Positions 30,803-41,526 of a stretch of 64,000 bases of DNA are shown piece after piece (positions within the stretch are counted from its first letter, which is position 1; the number at the start of each line of letters is the position of its first letter). The DNA lies in the NCBI GenBank assembly GCA_965204725.1, contig OZ242005.1, forward strand, positions 1,824,001 to 1,888,000. Direction: 5' to 3'. The position numbers and the translations under genes were made by a program. The DNA comes from Candidatus Latescibacterota bacterium. Its GTDB lineage: Bacteria; Latescibacterota; UBA2968; UBA8231. The notes beneath the pieces were generated by a model that worked only from the letters and a program-made list of their open reading frames with translations, was not told the origin of the DNA and made no database searches.

Positions 30803-30928
30803 TATAGCCGTCCTAAATGACTCGAAAGCATGGAATGTTGATCGGCCCGGTCTTTTTTGCCTCTGAGGCGTCATTTGTATGTTGCGTATTCCTTTCAGAT
30901 CGGCCACTCCCGCGAAAGCGGGAATCCA
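30803..30928. repeat. Intergenic REP/MITE-like element
   Basis: Begins with tatagccgtcctaaatgact (identical at 43057) and includes a tcccgc-gaaa-gcggga hairpin (30908-30923). Confidence 0.65.
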
Positions 30929-30954
30929 GTCTTGATGGTATCAAACTCGTCCTT

Positions 30955-33491: not shown

Positions 33492-33730
33492 CAGTCTTGC
33501 TCCTCTGCGTCAATCCAGTAGCGATGGATCACCCAGCCTGTCCAAGCGGCCAACAGCACCACCGCCCCCAGCGACACGGCCACCCACAGCGGAAAGCCCA
33601 ACACCAGCGGCCCCCGATACCCCTCGGGCCAGTACCAAGGCACGGCCAGCGCGTAGAGCAGCAAATAGACGATCCAGACGTAGCCGACTTTGCGCGGCTC
33701 CGAGATGAGTTGTTCTTGCGAGTCATTCAT
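33491..33730 (-). CDS. Small two-TM symporter accessory protein (DUF3311/DUF997-like)
   Basis: VPWYWP...LGFPLW, immediately upstream of the symporter (TGATG overlap). Confidence 0.75.
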   Translation of the reverse strand: MNDSQEQLISEPRKVGYVWIVYLLLYALAVPWYWPEGYRGPLVLGFPLWVAVSLGAVVLLAAWTGWVIHRYWIDAEEQD

Positions 33731-33740
33731 AATGAGCAAA

Positions 33741-34955
33741 TCAAAGCGCAGACACCGGAATTGACAAGGCCGCTTCCGCCAGCGGCAGCGATTGTGCAGC
33801 CAAACAGACCACGCCGCCGCATCCTACGGGTCGGTTTAATTTTTTCAGTGCTTGGAAGTGGCGGACGTGGTTTTTATTAGGCGAAGCGGTCTTTTTGAAC
33901 TCCAGCGGATAAATAGTGCCGTCCTGCAGCACGAGCAGATCAATTTCTTTGCCATCTCGGTCCCGATAATAATAGAATGGGGCTAGGCGACCGTTGTGCC
34001 GGTAGCTTTTCAGCAGTTCGCTCACGATCCAAGACTCCAAGATGGGGCCGGACAGGGCCCCGGCTTCTAGGGTCTCCGGGCTGGCCCACTCGGTCAGGTA
34101 GGCGCACAGCCCGGTATCGACAAAATAGAGCTTGGGGCTTCTCACCAGCCGCTTGGTGAGGTTGGTATAATACGGCTCCAAAAGATAGACCATTCCAGAA
34201 GCCTGTAAAATCGAAAGCCATGTTTTTGCGGTATTGGGAGCGACATCGGCATCGCGCGCCAAGTCCGAAAGGTTTAGCATTTGTCCGGTTCGGGCCGCCG
34301 CGGCCCTCAGAAAGCGGAGAAAGGCCAGCTCATCGCCCACTCGGGCGAGGTCGCGAATATCGCGCTGGAGGTAAGTCTGCACGTAGGCGCTATAAAAAAG
34401 GCCCCAATCCATTTGCTCATCCAGCGCAATGGCGGGAAAATCGCCGCGCCATATATGCCGGTAGAGTTCCTTTAAGCCGAGCGAGCCGCCCGTGCGGACC
34501 CTATCGCCCACAGCGTCGGGGGTCGGCAAAAACGGCGCAGCAGGCCCTCTGCCCATTCGCTCGCGCCTCGAAAGCCCCAAAAGCTGCACGATGCCCACTC
34601 GCCCGGCCAAGGATTCGGACACGCCTTGCATCAGGTGAAAGTGCTGGGAACCTGTAAGCCAAAACTGACCGGGCGTCCGCTGTCGATCTACGGCCATTTT
34701 GATATAGGGCAGCAGTTGTGGAGCGTATTGGATTTCGTCGATGAGGACCGGCGGCGCGAACCGCTGCATGAACAGGGCGGGGTCCTCCCTAGCCAAGCTC
34801 TGGACTAGGGGATCGTCTAAGGTGACGTAAGTGCGGTCTGATTGGCTTGCATGTTGCAACAGGGTCGTCTTGCCGACCTGTCTGGCCCCGCAGACCATGA
34901 GAACGGGAAATCGGCAAGACGCAACAAAGGCTTCGAGCGTTCGGGAGACGTACAT
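33741..34955 (-). CDS. AAA_14 ATPase with DUF4143 domain
   Basis: GARQVGKT, IDEIQ, LTGS, ESLAGR, SPKLYFVDTG, YYRDRDGKEID...EFK (PD-(D/E)xK-like tail); ATG at 34955. Confidence 0.92.
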   Translation of the reverse strand: MYVSRTLEAFVASCRFPVLMVCGARQVGKTTLLQHASQSDRTYVTLDDPLVQSLAREDPALFMQRFAPPVLIDEIQYAPQLLPYIKMAVDRQRTPGQFWLTGSQHFHLMQGVSESLAGRVGIVQLLGLSRRERMGRGPAAPFLPTPDAVGDRVRTGGSLGLKELYRHIWRGDFPAIALDEQMDWGLFYSAYVQTYLQRDIRDLARVGDELAFLRFLRAAAARTGQMLNLSDLARDADVAPNTAKTWLSILQASGMVYLLEPYYTNLTKRLVRSPKLYFVDTGLCAYLTEWASPETLEAGALSGPILESWIVSELLKSYRHNGRLAPFYYYRDRDGKEIDLLVLQDGTIYPLEFKKTASPNKNHVRHFQALKKLNRPVGCGGVVCLAAQSLPLAEAALSIPVSAL

Positions 34956-34966
34956 GCTGACCTCAA

Positions 34967-35019
34967 ATCGGCTAATTTGCAATCTCACTGCAAATTAGCC
35001 GATAATCGGGTGCTGTCAA
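34967..35019 (-). promoter_or_regulatory. Sigma70-like promoter overlapped by a perfect 15-bp palindromic operator
   Basis: Minus-strand TTGACA (35019-35014), 16 nt, TAATTT; inverted repeat atcggctaatttgca-N7-tgcaaattagccgat (34967-35003). Confidence 0.6.
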
Positions 35020-35060
35020 GGCGATGCTGTCGTGTACTTAGGGATTTCGCTCTGAAATGC

Positions 35061-36680
35061 TTATGGGGTAGTGCTCGTATAATTAAAATGCTCGGCAATG
35101 GCGTCCAATTTTTCGACTACTTCTGGGTGAATTTCCTCTTTTGTCATCTGTGCTGCAATCAGGTAATACTCGGTTTCTTTGACATCTAATCCCGCCTCAT
35201 TAAATATATTAGCAAGAACTTTTTTCGCCTTAGGCTCTAGTAGGTAAAGAGACGATTCAAAAGGGGCCTCGTAGAACACTGGGGGGAATTGTCTCTTCAT
35301 GTACACCCTTGCCTGATCTGCCGCTTGTTTTCCTCTGGTGCTCTCCACGAAACGAGAGATCGCTTCTGGGTGAATAAGATAACTTTCAATTTCGTACCGA
35401 TCCCAGTACAGGCGGCTCATGCCTTTGGGAAGCGTAGGTGTCTTGCTGTGATCTTTGCCATCACTATCGAGTAACTCCACTCCACGTAAGTCGGGAACCA
35501 TCAACTGCATAGCGGAAAAATGTTTTACAGCAGGCCATTCTTTTTCGGCAGTTTCCCGGCTAAACGGCTTTTCCAAAAATAGCAACAGAGAATGTCCCAA
35601 AATGCGCGCCCATTCCCTCAATATGGGAATGTCCGTAGGGCCTTCAACGTACAAAATTCTTGGCTTGGTCTCTGTCTCTGCAAGCATGATTTCTGTATTT
35701 TCCAGATATAAGGTATCCTTTAGTTTTTTATTCTTGACCTTCTTCAGTTCGTTGGCTAACAAGCGCAGGTTGTCTTGGTCGGCGGCGTTGATGAGTCGCT
35801 CTGAATGCGTGGCAATAATTAGTTGCGATCTGTTTTGGCGGGTATATTCACACAATTTGCAGTACATTTTGTCCTGCAACAAGATATGCAGATGTGCGTC
35901 CGGCTCATCAATGAGCACGATCGACGCTTCTTTGTACAGTATGGCAGCATAAACTAGCAACACCTGTAAGAAACCACTTGCTGCGCTACTCAGATCGTAA
36001 AATGGGCTTTGGGCTGAATGTCGGTAACGAGCAAGTATTTCCGCTGCGCCGCTTGGGGACCCCAATTCGTAATCAAAAAAAGAACGGACGACCTCCTGCA
36101 ATGCCTGCCACTTTTGGGGGTCTTGGCTGATGGCAAGTAGCAGATTGCGCAATACACTACCGGCTTGTGCCCGTGCAAGTTGTGCTGGAATCACTTCGGG
36201 ATTAAAAAATTTCTCTTTAATGTCTAGCCCTGAGAGGGGAGGGACATATATGGATATGAGAGGTTCACGAATGTATTGTTCTAGATCGTCCTCTTTCACC
36301 TTTTTCGCCGGACGGATAGCGGCTAACTCTTGTTCCTTATATAGGACTTCAAAACCGATGGTCCATTGGTCTGTATCCAGCCATAAGGAAGTAGGATGCT
36401 GAACATTTTTACTTGGCCACAAATGATCGAAATCCGCTAAGGGCACCGAGTGAAAATTTAACAAATTGAGGTTGATGCTTGGATAATTCTCGTCTTCCTC
36501 ACGTGCTAGGTCGGGCTTATTATTGGACCAATGGAAGGCGATCTCCGACCACGCGGCAATGGCTTGTAGAAGCGTCGTCTTACCGCAGTTGTTCGGCCCG
36601 GCAATGACGAGGTGATCTGGAAGTTCAAATTCCAAGTGCTCAAATTTCTTAAAATTTTTGATAACCACTTTGTTAATCAT
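35061..36680 (-). CDS. ABC-type ATPase + TOPRIM domain protein (OLD/AAA_15-like nuclease)
   Basis: IKNFK, Walker A GPNNCGKT, Walker B LIDEPDAHLH, ATHS; TOPRIM YVEGPTD, LDSD, EIESY; ATG at 36680. Confidence 0.85.
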   Translation of the reverse strand: MINKVVIKNFKKFEHLEFELPDHLVIAGPNNCGKTTLLQAIAAWSEIAFHWSNNKPDLAREEDENYPSINLNLLNFHSVPLADFDHLWPSKNVQHPTSLWLDTDQWTIGFEVLYKEQELAAIRPAKKVKEDDLEQYIREPLISIYVPPLSGLDIKEKFFNPEVIPAQLARAQAGSVLRNLLLAISQDPQKWQALQEVVRSFFDYELGSPSGAAEILARYRHSAQSPFYDLSSAASGFLQVLLVYAAILYKEASIVLIDEPDAHLHILLQDKMYCKLCEYTRQNRSQLIIATHSERLINAADQDNLRLLANELKKVKNKKLKDTLYLENTEIMLAETETKPRILYVEGPTDIPILREWARILGHSLLLFLEKPFSRETAEKEWPAVKHFSAMQLMVPDLRGVELLDSDGKDHSKTPTLPKGMSRLYWDRYEIESYLIHPEAISRFVESTRGKQAADQARVYMKRQFPPVFYEAPFESSLYLLEPKAKKVLANIFNEAGLDVKETEYYLIAAQMTKEEIHPEVVEKLDAIAEHFNYTSTTP

Positions 36681-37035
36681 GTTTGTTTGCCTCTGGTACA
36701 AAAAAGGGAGGGCTTTCACTCCAGACGATGCGCCCTTTTCGCAGCCAATAGTGGCAGCGGCAGGGCAAGCCGGTTACGTGAACTGAAGGTGATAGCGAAA
36801 TCTGTCCGTCCGCATGTTCTGTTATGCTCCACCGTTTGTCAACTTGGGGCGACACATCCAAGTGAACAACTTGTCGGCATGCCTTGCGAGGGCAGACAAT
36901 AGCCGCATAAAACGGGTGTTTGCGTCCGCCAATGATGTACACCGTATTTTTGTGGAGATCGTCCGGCAAATCTTCTACCCACTCAGTGCGGTAAGGACGG
37001 AAACGCGCCCATATATTGAAAATCCATCTAAACAT
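36673..37035 (-). CDS. DUF6527-like Cys/His protein
   Basis: VEDLPDDL...CPRKAC...W...SLSPSV...CRCHYWLRKGRIVW pattern. Confidence 0.75.
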   Translation of the reverse strand: MFRWIFNIWARFRPYRTEWVEDLPDDLHKNTVYIIGGRKHPFYAAIVCPRKACRQVVHLDVSPQVDKRWSITEHADGQISLSPSVHVTGLPCRCHYWLRKGRIVWSESPPFFVPEANKHD

Positions 37036-38419
37036 GGCTAGTGTTATTTTTTACGAGTAAACTCCTGTCTCCTGTTCCCATGTATCGTACCATCAATGGA
37101 TGTGGAACTCCCTCGTCCGCGGCGTTTTCATAGCATCCATGCACGAGGCGAAATCGTTGAGTCGAAAATTCGGCGTTGGCATCAAAGCGATAGGCATGAA
37201 TGCGGGCCATGAAATCGTTAAACGCCATACACGCCGCCTGCATGTTGACAGACATAACCGCCGGTTGTTCCTCGCCGACAGCGACTAAATAGCCGGCCAC
37301 GCGCTGTCGTTGGTAGTACGTCGGGTCTTCTCGCTGCCAAACTTCGGCCGTCACCTGTTCCATAGTGTACGCGCCGCGAGATAGCAGGCTTTCGCCTTCT
37401 GGATGAATGTAATGCGATACGGCATCGGCGGTGGTGATACCACCTTTACCGTCGGCTTCAAGATGGACTCCCACGTCAAAATAGGGAATCAGGTAAGCAC
37501 TTGCTAGGCAATCGAGGTGGTATCGTCCAAAGGCGGAATCCACGCAGCCGAAGATCACATCGCAATCTACTAAAGCGGCGACGACATCCGGTGAATCCGT
37601 CAATCCTTGGTACGCATCTACTTTGGTTCCCAAGCCGATCTTCTGAATAGCCCGTTCAATCGCCCCCACCTTTGGCTGCTGCTTGCGGGCGTCATCTATA
37701 GTACTGTTGATGAGGCGGTTCAGATTTTTCTCTTCTACTATATCATCGTCCACAAGGACCAACTCACGCACGCAATTACGCATGAGTAGTTCAATGATTA
37801 TGCTTCCCGTGCCTGAACAGCCCACAACCCCCACTCGCATAGTGTGCAATAAATCCAACGTGCCCTTGCCAAAGGTTTGCGCTAGCTTTTCTTGGTACGC
37901 TGTTTGGCTTCGGGATTTGTGGGCCTTCCAGATGTGGATATTATCGCCGACTGCGGCGACCGTTGGCATATCGGAGAACGTTCCACGTGCGTCCACTGTG
38001 CGGGCCGCGATCTGGCCATTCGACAACATAATGGCGGAGCCATTTGGTCGCCCGTCGTCAAACCAATTGCATACAGAAGAAAACAATTCTCGGTCGTTGC
38101 GGTCGTCAATTTTTGAAAACCGGCCACATCCTTTGGGATGGGAATGAATAGTGACTATAGACTGTTCGTCCCTGTCTATATTGCAGATTTTTCCTGGCGA
38201 CAGGCAGTCGCCAAAAGGCCAAGAGACAAAATTCTCTTTTCTCTCCGACAGATGATGTGGCGGACACAAAACATCCGCAACGATGAGGCGGCGATGCCTC
38301 TTCCCTGTCCCTTGGTTGCACAACAAAATGGCGGCGGCCTCCAGCCCGTCTCCAGGGAAAAGGTGGTTTTTAACCTCCTCATACCGACTCGCGGTCATAG
38401 TCAGGATAGTGGTTGTCAT
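37028..38419 (-). CDS. JAB/JAMM peptidase - ThiF/E1 adenylyltransferase fusion (BubCD-like)
   Basis: N-terminal E...HSHP...S..D JAMM motif; C-terminal VVGCSGTG, VDDD, NLNR, K, GCVDS..GR, DVG, GY...PAV. Confidence 0.9.
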   Translation of the reverse strand: MTTTILTMTASRYEEVKNHLFPGDGLEAAAILLCNQGTGKRHRRLIVADVLCPPHHLSERKENFVSWPFGDCLSPGKICNIDRDEQSIVTIHSHPKGCGRFSKIDDRNDRELFSSVCNWFDDGRPNGSAIMLSNGQIAARTVDARGTFSDMPTVAAVGDNIHIWKAHKSRSQTAYQEKLAQTFGKGTLDLLHTMRVGVVGCSGTGSIIIELLMRNCVRELVLVDDDIVEEKNLNRLINSTIDDARKQQPKVGAIERAIQKIGLGTKVDAYQGLTDSPDVVAALVDCDVIFGCVDSAFGRYHLDCLASAYLIPYFDVGVHLEADGKGGITTADAVSHYIHPEGESLLSRGAYTMEQVTAEVWQREDPTYYQRQRVAGYLVAVGEEQPAVMSVNMQAACMAFNDFMARIHAYRFDANAEFSTQRFRLVHGCYENAADEGVPHPLMVRYMGTGDRSLLVKNNTSHV

Positions 38420-38805
38420 CACTCGACTTCGGCTCTTAGCTCGTTTTTTACGTACTCAATATGACTGACGATGGAATCGACCCCCGGCTGCCATGAGTAA
38501 TGACGCGACCAACGCTGCCAAGTCTGACCAAAATGAGTCTCAGAGGCCAGAGTACCTATTGGTGATCCATTTGATTTGCCAAGCGGAGGCCAAAAGTAAA
38601 ACATGTCCAACATCGATCCGGGATAGCCGCTTGGAATGAGCACCATCAGCTTGGATTTTTCTACCGTGTAGCCTTTGGGAATGGGAAAGTCGTCAATGAG
38701 TAGGCCATACGTGCCGTTTCCCTCGGCGACCTTCTTCCATTTGGACGGATAACTCGCATCTAGATATTCGGTGTCCTCCGGCGGTAACTCGTAGAGATTA
38801 ACCAT
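38419..38805 (-). CDS. Prokaryotic E2/UBC-fold protein (family E, BubB-like)
   Basis: FPIPKGY...IPSGYP..MLDMFYFWP...WQRWSRH..W.PGVD; no Cys; ATG at 38805. Confidence 0.85.
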   Translation of the reverse strand: MVNLYELPPEDTEYLDASYPSKWKKVAEGNGTYGLLIDDFPIPKGYTVEKSKLMVLIPSGYPGSMLDMFYFWPPLGKSNGSPIGTLASETHFGQTWQRWSRHYSWQPGVDSIVSHIEYVKNELRAEVE

Positions 38806-39523
38806 GGCCTTGCTGTGCCTGTCGCCGAACGGTCTCAAAGCGTTCAATGCCGGGACGGGATAAATCAACCACGTCATTGGCTGCGATTCTTTCTCTTTTA
38901 CCACCGTGCAGCTTCTGGTTGAGAGACCATTCATCATCGCGCTTGTCGGCCAGTGCCAAAATATCGGCCCCGGTGATTTCAGCAGAGTCCACGGTGTACT
39001 TGTCGCCGTCTATGCGGATGCGATATTTGTGCCCTTTGGGTGGACGGCGGTCGTTCTTGCCGCACTCCTCAAGATCAATGGCTTCGCCCGAGGCGGGAGG
39101 GATAACAAAAAACGAGTCCTCATCTTGGACGACAATCGTCATGTCATCCGTAACTTCCACATCCACACCGCCTTCAATGTCGGCAAACAGACGCCCCTGC
39201 GGGAACTTGTCATCCCGCTCTTTGAGTGCTTTACCAGTAACTTTTGCTTGTGGAAGGGCGAGATTGCGCGATCCGTTGAATTCTGGCCGCACTTCATTTC
39301 GCAACGGCGGGTTCTCTTCGATGGAACTTTTCCCCACTACAAACCGTTCCCCACCTCGAATAAGGAGATACTCCTCTGACAGGAGGGGAACATCTATGCC
39401 ATCTTCGCGGCTCAGAAAAATTCGTCCCTCGCTGCAATCGGCGATTTCGTAGAGCTCGTCAACAGAAACAAGCCCCGAATGGATTGGCTTTTCCTGCCCG
39501 TTAATTTGGATAGTTGGTTTCAT
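38798..39523 (-). CDS. Multi-ubiquitin-domain protein (three beta-grasp repeats; BubA-like)
   Basis: Three ~70-aa units starting IQING / PEFNG / IRIDG and ending ERF / DSF / ERF; C-terminus QAQQGHG; GGAGG RBS before ATG 39523. Confidence 0.85.
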   Translation of the reverse strand: MKPTIQINGQEKPIHSGLVSVDELYEIADCSEGRIFLSREDGIDVPLLSEEYLLIRGGERFVVGKSSIEENPPLRNEVRPEFNGSRNLALPQAKVTGKALKERDDKFPQGRLFADIEGGVDVEVTDDMTIVVQDEDSFFVIPPASGEAIDLEECGKNDRRPPKGHKYRIRIDGDKYTVDSAEITGADILALADKRDDEWSLNQKLHGGKRERIAANDVVDLSRPGIERFETVRRQAQQGHG

Positions 39524-39616
39524 CTTGATTTCCTCCAATCTTGTGTTTAATGGGTCTCTTGTCTAGTGTACAAGAGAAGCTCGCAAGCGCAAGTGGCCAT
39601 CTGCGGTCTTATTAGC

Positions 39617-39645
39617 AAGATAGTATAATCATGCGTTAATGTCAA
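39617..39645 (-). promoter_or_regulatory. Sigma70-type promoter of the Ubl operon
   Basis: Minus-strand TTGACA (39645-39640), N17, TATCTT (39622-39617) in an AT-rich divergent spacer. Confidence 0.6.
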
Positions 39646-39776
39646 TGAAAAAAAGCATAAATTGCCTTTTATCACAAACATTAACATTAAAAATATTCCT
39701 CTTGCGATTATATAAGTATCTGCCCTTTGCTTTTTATTGCTTGACATTCTCCCTAAGATCCTATACCTATATATAG

Positions 39777-40157
39777 ATGCGACGGAAACCTGATTCAGAG
39801 AAGCTCTACGAACTCGTAGGGCAGAAGGTGGAACGGCAACGGCGCGAGGCGAAGCTCTCGCAGACCCAACTCGCGCAACGTTGTGGCCTCGCCCGAGGCT
39901 CGATTGCCAATATTGAGAGCGGAAATCAGCGACCGACTCTCCACACGCTCTGGTCGCTCGCCAATGCGCTCAAAGTTGACGTGCGTTCGTTTTTGCCCTC
40001 TCGGGACGAGTTCCTAATGAGCGAGGCAGATACCGCAACCCCTAAAATCACAGGTTGGCTGAAGGATGAGGCAGTAAAGAGCCAAAACCAAGTCAATTCC
40101 TTCATCGCCGAGAGTCTAGAGAAGGTCGGCCCTAATGTCGCTGGAGAGAAAAGCTGA
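39777..40157 (+). CDS. XRE/HTH_3 transcriptional regulator (CapH-like)
   Basis: LSQTQLAQRCGLARGSIANIESG..RPTL..L..LA.AL. Confidence 0.92.
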   Translation: MRRKPDSEKLYELVGQKVERQRREAKLSQTQLAQRCGLARGSIANIESGNQRPTLHTLWSLANALKVDVRSFLPSRDEFLMSEADTATPKITGWLKDEAVKSQNQVNSFIAESLEKVGPNVAGEKS

Positions 40158-40638
40158 ACAGTTGCTCGCAGAGGCGGGACTGGATACTGTTCCAATTCCT
40201 GTGGAGCAAATCGCTGCTTACCTAGGCATAAAGGTCGAGTTGGCAGAGCTCGGCGAAGATTGCTCAGGAGTGCTCGTCCGAAATGAAGGCCGCGCTGTCA
40301 TTGGTGTGAACCAAGACCACCACCCCAACCGGCGGCGTTTTAGTATTGCACACGAGATCGCCCATTTCGTTCTCCACAAAGGCGATACGTACATCGACAA
40401 GGGGTATCTCGTGCATTTCCGCGACCGGGAGTCTGGTTCCGGCACCAAGTGGGAAGAGATGGCGGCCAATGCGTTTGCGGCGGCACTCCTCATGCCGGCG
40501 AAGCAGGTCAGGGATGCTTTCAAGCAGCAGCCCTTCGACCTAACCGAAGACAATGTCCTAGAGATGCTTGCCAAGAAGTTCAAAGTGAGCACCCAAGCGA
40601 TGACCTACCGTCTGATGAAGCTAAGAATGATCTCTTAG
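40135..40638 (+). CDS. ImmA/IrrE family metallo-endopeptidase (CapP-like)
   Basis: RRRFSIAHEIAH (HExxH), E..ANAFAAALLMP, FKVS..A..YRL; overlaps the HTH gene. Confidence 0.92.
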   Translation: MSLERKAEQLLAEAGLDTVPIPVEQIAAYLGIKVELAELGEDCSGVLVRNEGRAVIGVNQDHHPNRRRFSIAHEIAHFVLHKGDTYIDKGYLVHFRDRESGSGTKWEEMAANAFAAALLMPAKQVRDAFKQQPFDLTEDNVLEMLAKKFKVSTQAMTYRLMKLRMIS

Positions 40639-40689
40639 CCGTTCGTCAACCTAAACGCCCCATTCCATCCGGCCTCTATCGCTTTACCT

Positions 40690-41526
40690 CTATAGATGAT
40701 GAACAGCGGCAGCGGCAAAGGCTTCGTGATATTCCTCTTTAGCGACGAGGTGCTGCTCTAGCCGATCAATCAGTCCCATAAGCTCATCAACCTTGGCGAC
40801 GATGCGGTGTTGCTCGGCGAGGGGTGGAGTCGGTATAGAAATGAGCGCGAAATCCTTGCCTGATATTTCCTTAAAGGTCGTTCCCGTGGCCTGAGCGTCG
40901 ATTCCAGGACCTGCTTGTCTGAGGAAGATATAAAGGAACTCGGACATGGCTGGAATATAGGGCACACAAGACTTGAAGCCTTGGTTGGTGCTGAGCGGGT
41001 TAGCAGCGACACCAACGTGTCCAATCGGTGCCCGGCACGAAAACAAGACCGAACCTATCGGCAGCATCTGAGCAGACGATCTATTGAGTCCCTCAACGGT
41101 AATGTCGCGAGCTCCCCGCGAGATGTAACGGGAGGGCTGATTTCGCATATCAGCGGGTGTTACCCAAGGAATATCTTGCTCATCGCTCCAAAAAGAAGAT
41201 TCACTACTTCTCGGAGTGCCGCCTCCCACTATCGCACTAACATCACCTAGACGAAGCCACTGCCACGTTTCGGGAGTTTCAAAGGGTTTTTGTTCAACAG
41301 AGATTCCGCAGGAATAACGGGGTTTGGTGATCACTTTTTCTGAAAGGAGCCGTTGCTTACCCTCCGCCAAATCGGCAATCAACCTGCCCACCGGCTCGTC
41401 ATCCGGCCTCTGTTCCACCAACCGCCCCCGCACCGCAAGCCGAAGCACCAACGCCCTGAGCCGCTCAACCCCTCCCGGTGCCTCGGCGATCACATCAAAC
41501 GCGGCGATGAACTCCCCCAGCGTCAT
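40690..41526 (-). CDS. hsdS: Type I R-M specificity subunit, half-size (single TRD)
   Basis: LAVRGRLVEQ.P.DEP, PFETPETWQWLRLGD, GGTP TRD, PPLAEQHRIVAKVDELM; 278 aa only. Confidence 0.85.
   Translation of the reverse strand: MTLGEFIAAFDVIAEAPGGVERLRALVLRLAVRGRLVEQRPDDEPVGRLIADLAEGKQRLLSEKVITKPRYSCGISVEQKPFETPETWQWLRLGDVSAIVGGGTPRSSESSFWSDEQDIPWVTPADMRNQPSRYISRGARDITVEGLNRSSAQMLPIGSVLFSCRAPIGHVGVAANPLSTNQGFKSCVPYIPAMSEFLYIFLRQAGPGIDAQATGTTFKEISGKDFALISIPTPPLAEQHRIVAKVDELMGLIDRLEQHLVAKEEYHEAFAAAAVHHL

Follow-up and report, generated by a model that had tools for sequence, protein, structure and literature searches.

A predicted OLD-like ATPase-TOPRIM nuclease as the conserved fifth gene of one sub-family of Type I Bub operons

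The analyzed window, which is the whole stretch of 64,000 nucleotides from a contig of a Candidatus Latescibacterota bacterium, contained five overlapping minus-strand genes in the order Ubl, E2, JAB-E1, DUF6527, and ATPase-TOPRIM. The interval 35061–37035 corresponded to two of these minus-strand genes, namely bubE (37035–36673) and the ATPase-TOPRIM gene. The following features were assigned:

35061–36680, minus strand: putative OLD-like ABC ATPase-TOPRIM nuclease of 539 aa (P0001), the fifth gene of the operon, assigned by motifs and fold.
36673–37035, minus strand: bubE, DUF6527 Ser-His peptidase of 120 aa (PF20137, 58.7 bits; S84 and H95 by motif).
37028–38422, minus strand: bubCD, JAB peptidase-E1 fusion (PF14464 and PF00899; E28, H93, H95, D106, R236, and crossover Y378).
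38419–38805, minus strand: bubB, Prok-E2_E of 128 aa from ATG 38805 (PF14462; D67, S100, and H102).
38798–39523, minus strand: bubA, multi-ubiquitin Ubl of 241 aa from ATG 39523 (PF14452).
39617–39645, minus strand: sigma70-like sequence TTGACA-17-TATCTT upstream of bubA (10/12 match, by consensus only).
39777–40157, plus strand: divergent capH-like gene for an HTH repressor (profile matches).
40135–40638, plus strand: capP-like gene for an IrrE/M78 metallopeptidase (PADLOC capP, 128.6 bits).

The bubA ORF was open from TTG 39538, and its protein ended in QAQQG-HG; bubB was a gene separate from bubA, and its start overlapped the Ubl stop (ATGGTTAA). The promoter consensus scan found 9 sites versus 5.7 ± 2.7 expected by chance. 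A type I RM system lay beyond capH and capP in the window, and the GC content was 0.47–0.52 across the defense island versus about 0.62. A contig from run X1, possibly the very source of the window, matched positions 33500–41000 with 0 differences. The hsdS gene at window positions 40690–41526 encoded a half-size protein of 278 aa with one specificity domain, as did that of L001, and the specificity regions of the L007 and L008 hsdS genes were unrelated (about 40%). After the ATPase gene, on the same strand, an AAA_14/DUF4143 gene was located (33741–34988; PADLOC PDC-S01, 356 bits), with 22 tblastn matches in its own genome; since, among the cassettes, it was found at this place only in the window and in G027, it was considered to lie outside the system.

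The window shared with Type I Bub operons, as set out in the available part of bioRxiv 10.1101/2024.11.21.623953 (Ye et al.), the Ubl, the Ser/His/Asp E2, the JAB-E1 with a catalytic Tyr, the BubE Ser-His peptidase, and capH with capP upstream. The preliminary description of this DNA had recognized a Bub-like core, and its Ubl, E2, JAB-E1, and DUF6527 components were indeed all present, with every catalytic residue in place. BubA G239, the third-last residue of the window protein, was invariant in 22/22 sequences; BubB S100 and H102 were invariant and D67 nearly invariant in 25 aligned rows, with the same spacing as D299/S333/H335; and BubCD E28, H93, H95, D106, R236, and Y378 were identical in 45/45. 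The PS..CxCH motif of BubE gave S84/H95, with a Cys spacing unlike that of the Citrobacter protein. Judging by these sequences, the first four genes make up a Type I Bub operon by the definition of Ye et al., with its catalytic residues intact, to which the window adds a conserved fifth gene, that of the OLD-like nuclease. Type I Bub is described there as conjugating proteins through oxyesters, and the accessible text describes a Ubl-E2 fusion, BubAB, in Type I (bioRxiv 10.1101/2024.11.21.623953). This fusion was absent from the window, where the two genes were separate and overlapping; of the remaining 21 cassettes, 10 also had separate genes and 11 had fused ones. Both states were scattered over the tree of the 22 cassettes, so gene fusion and fission have occurred repeatedly at the site of Gly cleavage. 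Because Table S1 of Ye et al. gives separate ids for some operons, the separate genes were not taken as excluding Type I; the split itself was rejected as a novelty, as the portion of that table at hand already has such Type I operons.

The mechanically called ORF of the fifth gene began at GTG 36719 (552 aa) and the conserved start was ATG 36680 (539 aa), with M1 nearly invariant among 30 relatives. As the preliminary description had stated, this ATG overlapped the bubE stop, by 8 nt (ATGATTAA at 36680–36673), and the Walker A/B, H-switch, and TOPRIM acidic motifs reported in it were present and conserved across the aligned relatives. They comprised Walker A residues 28–35 (GPNNCGKT), the Walker B/D-loop D258-E259-P260, the H-switch H292, and TOPRIM residues E346 (VEGPTD), D350, D405-S-D407, E430/E432 (EIE), and K484, the TOPRIM catalytic residues being assigned by motif rather than by residue-level superposition. 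K34, D258, E259, H292, E346, D350, E430, E432, and K484 were invariant in 30/30 aligned relatives, D405 was nearly so, and D407 was replaced by N in part of the family. The full-length model had a pLDDT of 84.7, and its first Foldseek match was the T. scotoductus OLD protein. The ATPase domain was PtuA/SMC-like, with PtuA as the closest fold (Z = 20.7, rmsd = 4.0, 293 aligned). For the C-terminal half, Pfam offered no named family; when its last 210 residues were folded alone (pLDDT 89.8), only 2 of 48,161 chains reached a Z of at least 8, namely 6nk8, an OLD C-terminal region (Z = 9.4, rmsd = 4.3, 173 aligned), and 8v46_D, which is AriB (Z = 9.3, rmsd = 4.4, 176 aligned), and the best five Foldseek rows for this region were all OLD C-terminal regions. 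Motifs and models together indicate that the product is an OLD-like ABC ATPase fused to TOPRIM, with predicted nuclease activity. The family is large (2570 matches among 8000 candidates scored), and the window's own genome contained two more paralogues (34% and 28%), neither of which had a Bub gene within 15–16 kb.

Known OLD proteins, which act alone or with partners, are divided in the available part of PMC10568477 into classes 1 (P2 Old, 6p74), 2 (GajA, 6nk8), and 3 (retron effectors), and the window protein had 12–16% identity to known OLD structures in structural alignments. Class 1 OLD is a single gene without partners, whereas here 20 of the 25 members of the ATPase clade followed a Bub operon. 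The 12 proteins encoded between 33744 and 46313 included neither the UvrD-like GajB of Gabija (class 2) nor the RT of retrons (class 3); the GajA profiles matched only the ATPase motifs, and retron_eff_Eco8 scored 47 bits against a cut-off of 250 (NCBIfam). As for PARIS, the AriAB PADLOC profile gave a partial, low-score match (82 bits, best stretch 219–453), the TOPRIM fold was tied between AriB and OLD (Z 9.3 and 9.4), and there was no separate AriB gene. For Septu/retron I-A, the NCBIfam PtuA profile scored 55 bits against a cut-off of 500, and there was no separate PtuB gene. No named defense profile therefore described the protein, the NCBIfam scores being far below cut-off and the PADLOC matches partial. 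Since its partner is a Ubl conjugation operon rather than a UvrD helicase, an RT, or nothing, it fits no context-defined OLD class.

Loci were gathered by a genome scan (13) and a metagenome scan with BubCD (67), and genome searches covered 61 relatives, 168 genomes from the window's phylum, 201 from the order that includes G169, 115 from the G172 family, and 33 from the G168 class, each search scoring part of the first-look candidates. The ATPase quick tree contained 48 sequences, namely, all intact ones at a level of at least 42% and 23 more distant paralogues; 119 homologues from the family search, which came without genomic context, were left out of the linkage counts. The BubCD tree contained 45 full-length sequences, near-duplicates and fragments being left out. 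The ATPase tree revealed a clade of 25 (SH-aLRT 100, stem 0.81), with 20 Bub-linked and five stand-alone members (L003, L004, L005, L152, and L159). None of the 23 paralogues outside it had a JAB-E1 or bubE match in its flanks (mostly 1.5 kb or more), which indicates that the ATPase family works without Bub. Meanwhile, the BubCD tree revealed a clade of 22 (support 99) in which the ATPase or its remnant occupied the same position in 22/22 cassettes (20 intact and two broken, in G029, by an insert of about 99 bp, and in G027). The gene was found in 0/26 other Bub loci (23 with full-length BubCD, 4 of them with under 1 kb of sequence after E1, and 3 Nitrospira-family loci). Thus, the co-occurrence that the preliminary description had singled out for measurement was confirmed, the closest ATPase homologues being mostly those with Ubl genes, and because 20/25 clade members were Bub-linked, the ATPase was regarded as a lasting component of a single Bub sub-family rather than casual cargo.

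The linked cassettes spanned Latescibacterota, Rhodothermota, and Nitrospirota. The related loci came from Latescibacterota, Rhodothermales, and Nitrospira MAGs, presumably sponge symbionts. In 20 cassettes, BubCD and ATPase distances were strongly correlated (Mantel r = 0.92; 0/2000 permutations as high), and the co-divergence held even where identity was as low as 54% for BubCD and 43% for the ATPase. The ATPase/bubE overlap was kept at all 16 junctions printed. The capH/capP-like genes were detected in 10/22 cassettes and not detected in another 10, with two at contig edges, and the flanks differed among the 22 cassettes while the bubE/ATPase junction persisted. Five cassettes with an intact ATPase had a decayed or absent bubE (L141, L142, L187, L188, and L189). 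The association thus goes back to a single ancient acquisition, which has survived changes of regulators and flanks and even, here and there, the loss of bubE. In the latter five cassettes, a gap of 263–356 bp separated E1 from the ATPase, and the catalytic residues of Ubl, E2, and JAB-E1 were kept. All Bub operons are said to possess bubE in the accessible part of bioRxiv 10.1101/2024.11.21.623953, the catalogue of which was built from DUF6527-containing operons. Viral contigs gave no ATPase relative (seven pattern matches, 0 confirmed); among plasmid records, BubCD had 112 matches, and 3 records showed a match to roughly half of the ATPase.

The near-reciprocal clades, the correlated distances, the preserved overlap with bubE, and the invariance of the Bub catalytic residues (near-invariance for BubB D67) speak for a possible, although doubtful, explanation, in which the OLD protein would be a dedicated effector of the Bub sub-family, with Ubl conjugation or binding switching the nuclease and BubE resetting it. 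The Ubl could be placed on the ATPase or on a phage protein that the ATPase reads, or the three-domain Ubl could be bound, and Bub would have a role like that of GajB, the retron RT, or AriA for other OLD/TOPRIM nucleases. The nearest BubCD lineages (L016/L017, L206, L207, and L208) carried a different ABC ATPase and a PIN-like ORF directly upstream of Ubl, which points in the same direction, as does the clade-specific lysine K486, invariant in 20/20 linked copies and found in 0/23 of the outgroup; however, K486 was also kept in 5/5 stand-alone copies. Furthermore, with one gain only, co-inheritance is expected from linkage, 0/26 other Bub loci have the gene, and loss and escape occurred both ways. 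Conjugation of the ATPase C-terminus in the manner of CBASS CD-NTase-like proteins was rejected, as this C-terminus is variable and has no conserved Gly. The complex prediction for Ubl, E2, and ATPase-TOPRIM, with the ATPase as the partner, scored 0.31 versus a mark of 0.32, a value obtained without folded controls and given no weight either way as to binding.

The variation at D407 bears on the same explanation. All 14 linked copies with DxD had an intact bubE, whereas among the DxN copies, 10/11 lacked either bubE (five) or an adjacent Bub (five), and all five stand-alone copies had DxN instead of DxD; by sequence, their nuclease activity may be less than full. However, all DxN copies came from one order, and a single origin of DxN was not rejected (p-AU 0.31). 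The proposal that DxD changed to DxN twice, with bubE loss, was weakened accordingly. In its widest form, which we hold only tentatively and regard as improbable on balance, the effector explanation would make the OLD nuclease, under the control of the Bub Ubl pathway, a new OLD context class and the first cognate Bub output; Bub neighbors would swap ABC-ATPase/nuclease modules (TOPRIM downstream or PIN-like upstream), and a cassette could afford to lose BubE only if its nuclease were of the weakened DxN form.

The five stand-alone ATPases were nested among the linked ones, and monophyly of the Bub-linked copies was rejected (p-AU = 3 × 10−36). The dN/dS values were 0.13–0.25 for L004, L005, and L152 and 0.07–0.28 for linked pairs; the three testable stand-alone copies are thus under purifying selection. 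The single chromosome of G169 had the ATPase and no BubCD match. The argument from stand-alone copies is weakened by G170 and G171, which account for three of the five and also hold a Bub cassette elsewhere; the L152 copy was 258 bp from a contig end. In G027, the closest Bub operon (94%), four ORFs were intact and the ATPase was reduced to 31 codons. The purifying selection on stand-alone copies, this nearest operon without the gene, and a sister clade without Bub tell against the earlier proposal that Ubl attachment or removal switches the nuclease. The synonymous distances were higher in the ATPase than in BubCD for several pairs (dS of 1.45 versus 0.42, 0.64 versus 0.20, and 1.82 versus 0.67), and DNA identity fell at the bubE/ATPase border, with a mosaic within the ATPase gene. 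Between L007 and L008, identity was 93–100% in Bub, 76–91% in the ATPase domain, and 99–100% in the TOPRIM part; in L123 and L010, it fell from 90–98% to 56–94%. The ATPase slot is refilled by recombination, a result that rests on dS and DNA identity since the protein trees showed no significant conflict for the window, L001, and L008 (p-AU 0.38). As read from these sequences, the pattern fits a phage-facing gene exchanged in place, with a loose or absent Bub interface.

The alternative offered in the preliminary description, an independent gene using the same promoter, fared better in part: self-sufficiency fits somewhat better, whereas casual cargo does not agree with the old and conserved linkage. 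We see about an even chance that the gene encodes a self-sufficient sensor-nuclease co-expressed with Bub as a parallel arm of killing. In this reading, an OLD-family gene was captured once as the last cistron of a Type I Bub operon and has been kept since; the ABC ATPase domain would detect a phage cue and license the TOPRIM domain to cleave nucleic acid, either tRNA or DNA, and thereby halt the infected cell. The nuclease would stand under the operon promoter, in the window controlled by the CapH/CapP damage switch, and be translationally coupled to bubE, and owing to this shared promoter and coupling, it would fire alongside Ubl conjugation as a second arm, its own switching being independent of Ubl. 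Here, ATPase-regulated nuclease activity is carried over by analogy from OLD, GajA, and PARIS and damage induction from CapH/CapP; we infer the co-transcription, anti-phage role, substrate, and independence from Ubl. Against a parallel arm, retention of the ATPase was stronger than that of any other neighbor (22/22 cassettes), and the long stem (0.81) may reflect specialization on joining Bub.

The sister ATPase-TOPRIM clade (36–41% identity), which had no Bub, included ATPases inserted between type III mod and res, the start and stop codons of adjacent genes overlapping (L143:6917–8566 and L209:4272–5930), and the sister ATPases of L173–L176 had the same flanking ORF starts as this arrangement. 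As far as such gene order tells, the ATPase family habitually nests in other defense operons. In L017 and L206, the Bub block itself lay between type III mod and res, which suggests that this was the place where Bub and the ATPase first met. The presence of both sister groups inside type III mod..res, together with the position of the window in a lower-GC defense island beside type I RM, would agree with simple hitch-hiking, i.e., two defense modules that met in an RM hotspot and became one transferable block, the benefit being no more than a promoter. Such a course of events appears unlikely, as the other neighbors were shuffled while the bubE/ATPase junction persisted across three phyla, and bubE was lost more often (five cases) than the ATPase (two).

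Finally, the nuclease could act upstream of Bub rather than beside it, sensing phage and nicking DNA; the ssDNA would activate CapP, leading to cleavage of CapH and induction of the Bub genes. OLD would then be trigger and amplifier, and Bub the output. The divergent capH/capP upstream in the window, the response of CapH and CapP to DNA damage described in the accessible parts of bioRxiv 10.1101/2024.11.21.623953 and PMC13373217, and the nicking of DNA by some OLDs described in that of PMC10568477 are in line with this scheme. Nevertheless, we rate it as very unlikely, since capH/capP were not detected in 10/22 cassettes keeping the ATPase, the nuclease gene is itself within the repressed operon, and P2 OLD is reported, in the part of bioRxiv 10.64898/2026.07.10.737580 at hand, to be an ATPase-gated tRNase.

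The OLD nuclease and Type I Bub are each known; what appears new is their fixed combination, which was not found in the Bub papers and supplements consulted. Both supplements of Ye et al. contain no 'ATPase', 'TOPRIM', 'OLD', or 'nuclease', the main text of the companion Bub paper contains no 'ATPase', 'TOPRIM', or 'nuclease', and the available part of Iyer 2006 (PMC1779556) gives no ATPase or TOPRIM for the 6E operons. Among the works listed for DUF6527, Bub, and TOPRIM-ubiquitin, none described a Bub-OLD link, although the published version of Ye et al. or the ABC-ATPase classification of Krishnan 2020 could mention one. The biochemistry of Bub operons is solved, without a known target or phenotype: no Bub operon was found to protect E. 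coli from phage according to the part of bioRxiv 10.1101/2024.11.21.623953 at hand, and a 2026 paper (PMC13373217, accessible part) restates that phage protection by Bub is not demonstrated. A Bub sub-family with a fixed fifth gene of toxic type supplies a readout and a candidate substrate, by which the purpose of Bub becomes testable, and the natural variants (no bubE, no ATPase, or ATPase alone) are ready controls. If the nuclease is independent, this would be one more case of defense genes nesting in defense operons, of modest interest.

The interrupted cassettes and the neighboring slots had further features. In the G029 ATPase, the insert (L007:8646–8744, about 99 bp) carried a palindromic repeat, and 31 bp of it matched (94%) the window at about 30905–30935, just downstream of an M42 peptidase gene; it possibly belongs to a REP or MITE family. 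In G027 (L122:14634–19001), a sigma-like gene, an unknown ORF, and an IrrE-UvrD fusion replaced capH/capP and the type I RM block, of which a short hsdR remnant persisted. A profile scan for other ABC ATPases at 46 non-clade Bub loci was discarded as too narrow, having missed the L017 ATPase. The block upstream of Ubl was located at L017:3472–5308, L206:4334–6144, L207:3849–5650, and L208:3500–5301; its ABC ATPase was 426–435 aa in size (NsnB, PDC-M55A, HEC-03B-like), and the only named Atlas neighbor of its PIN-like ORF (173–189 aa) was PIN (rank 24, 0.93, 145 of 256 features). In a distant Bub lineage (L031, L032, L033, and L036), a gene of 524–526 aa with a similar N-terminus followed bubE and could be a further cargo or effector occupying this slot.
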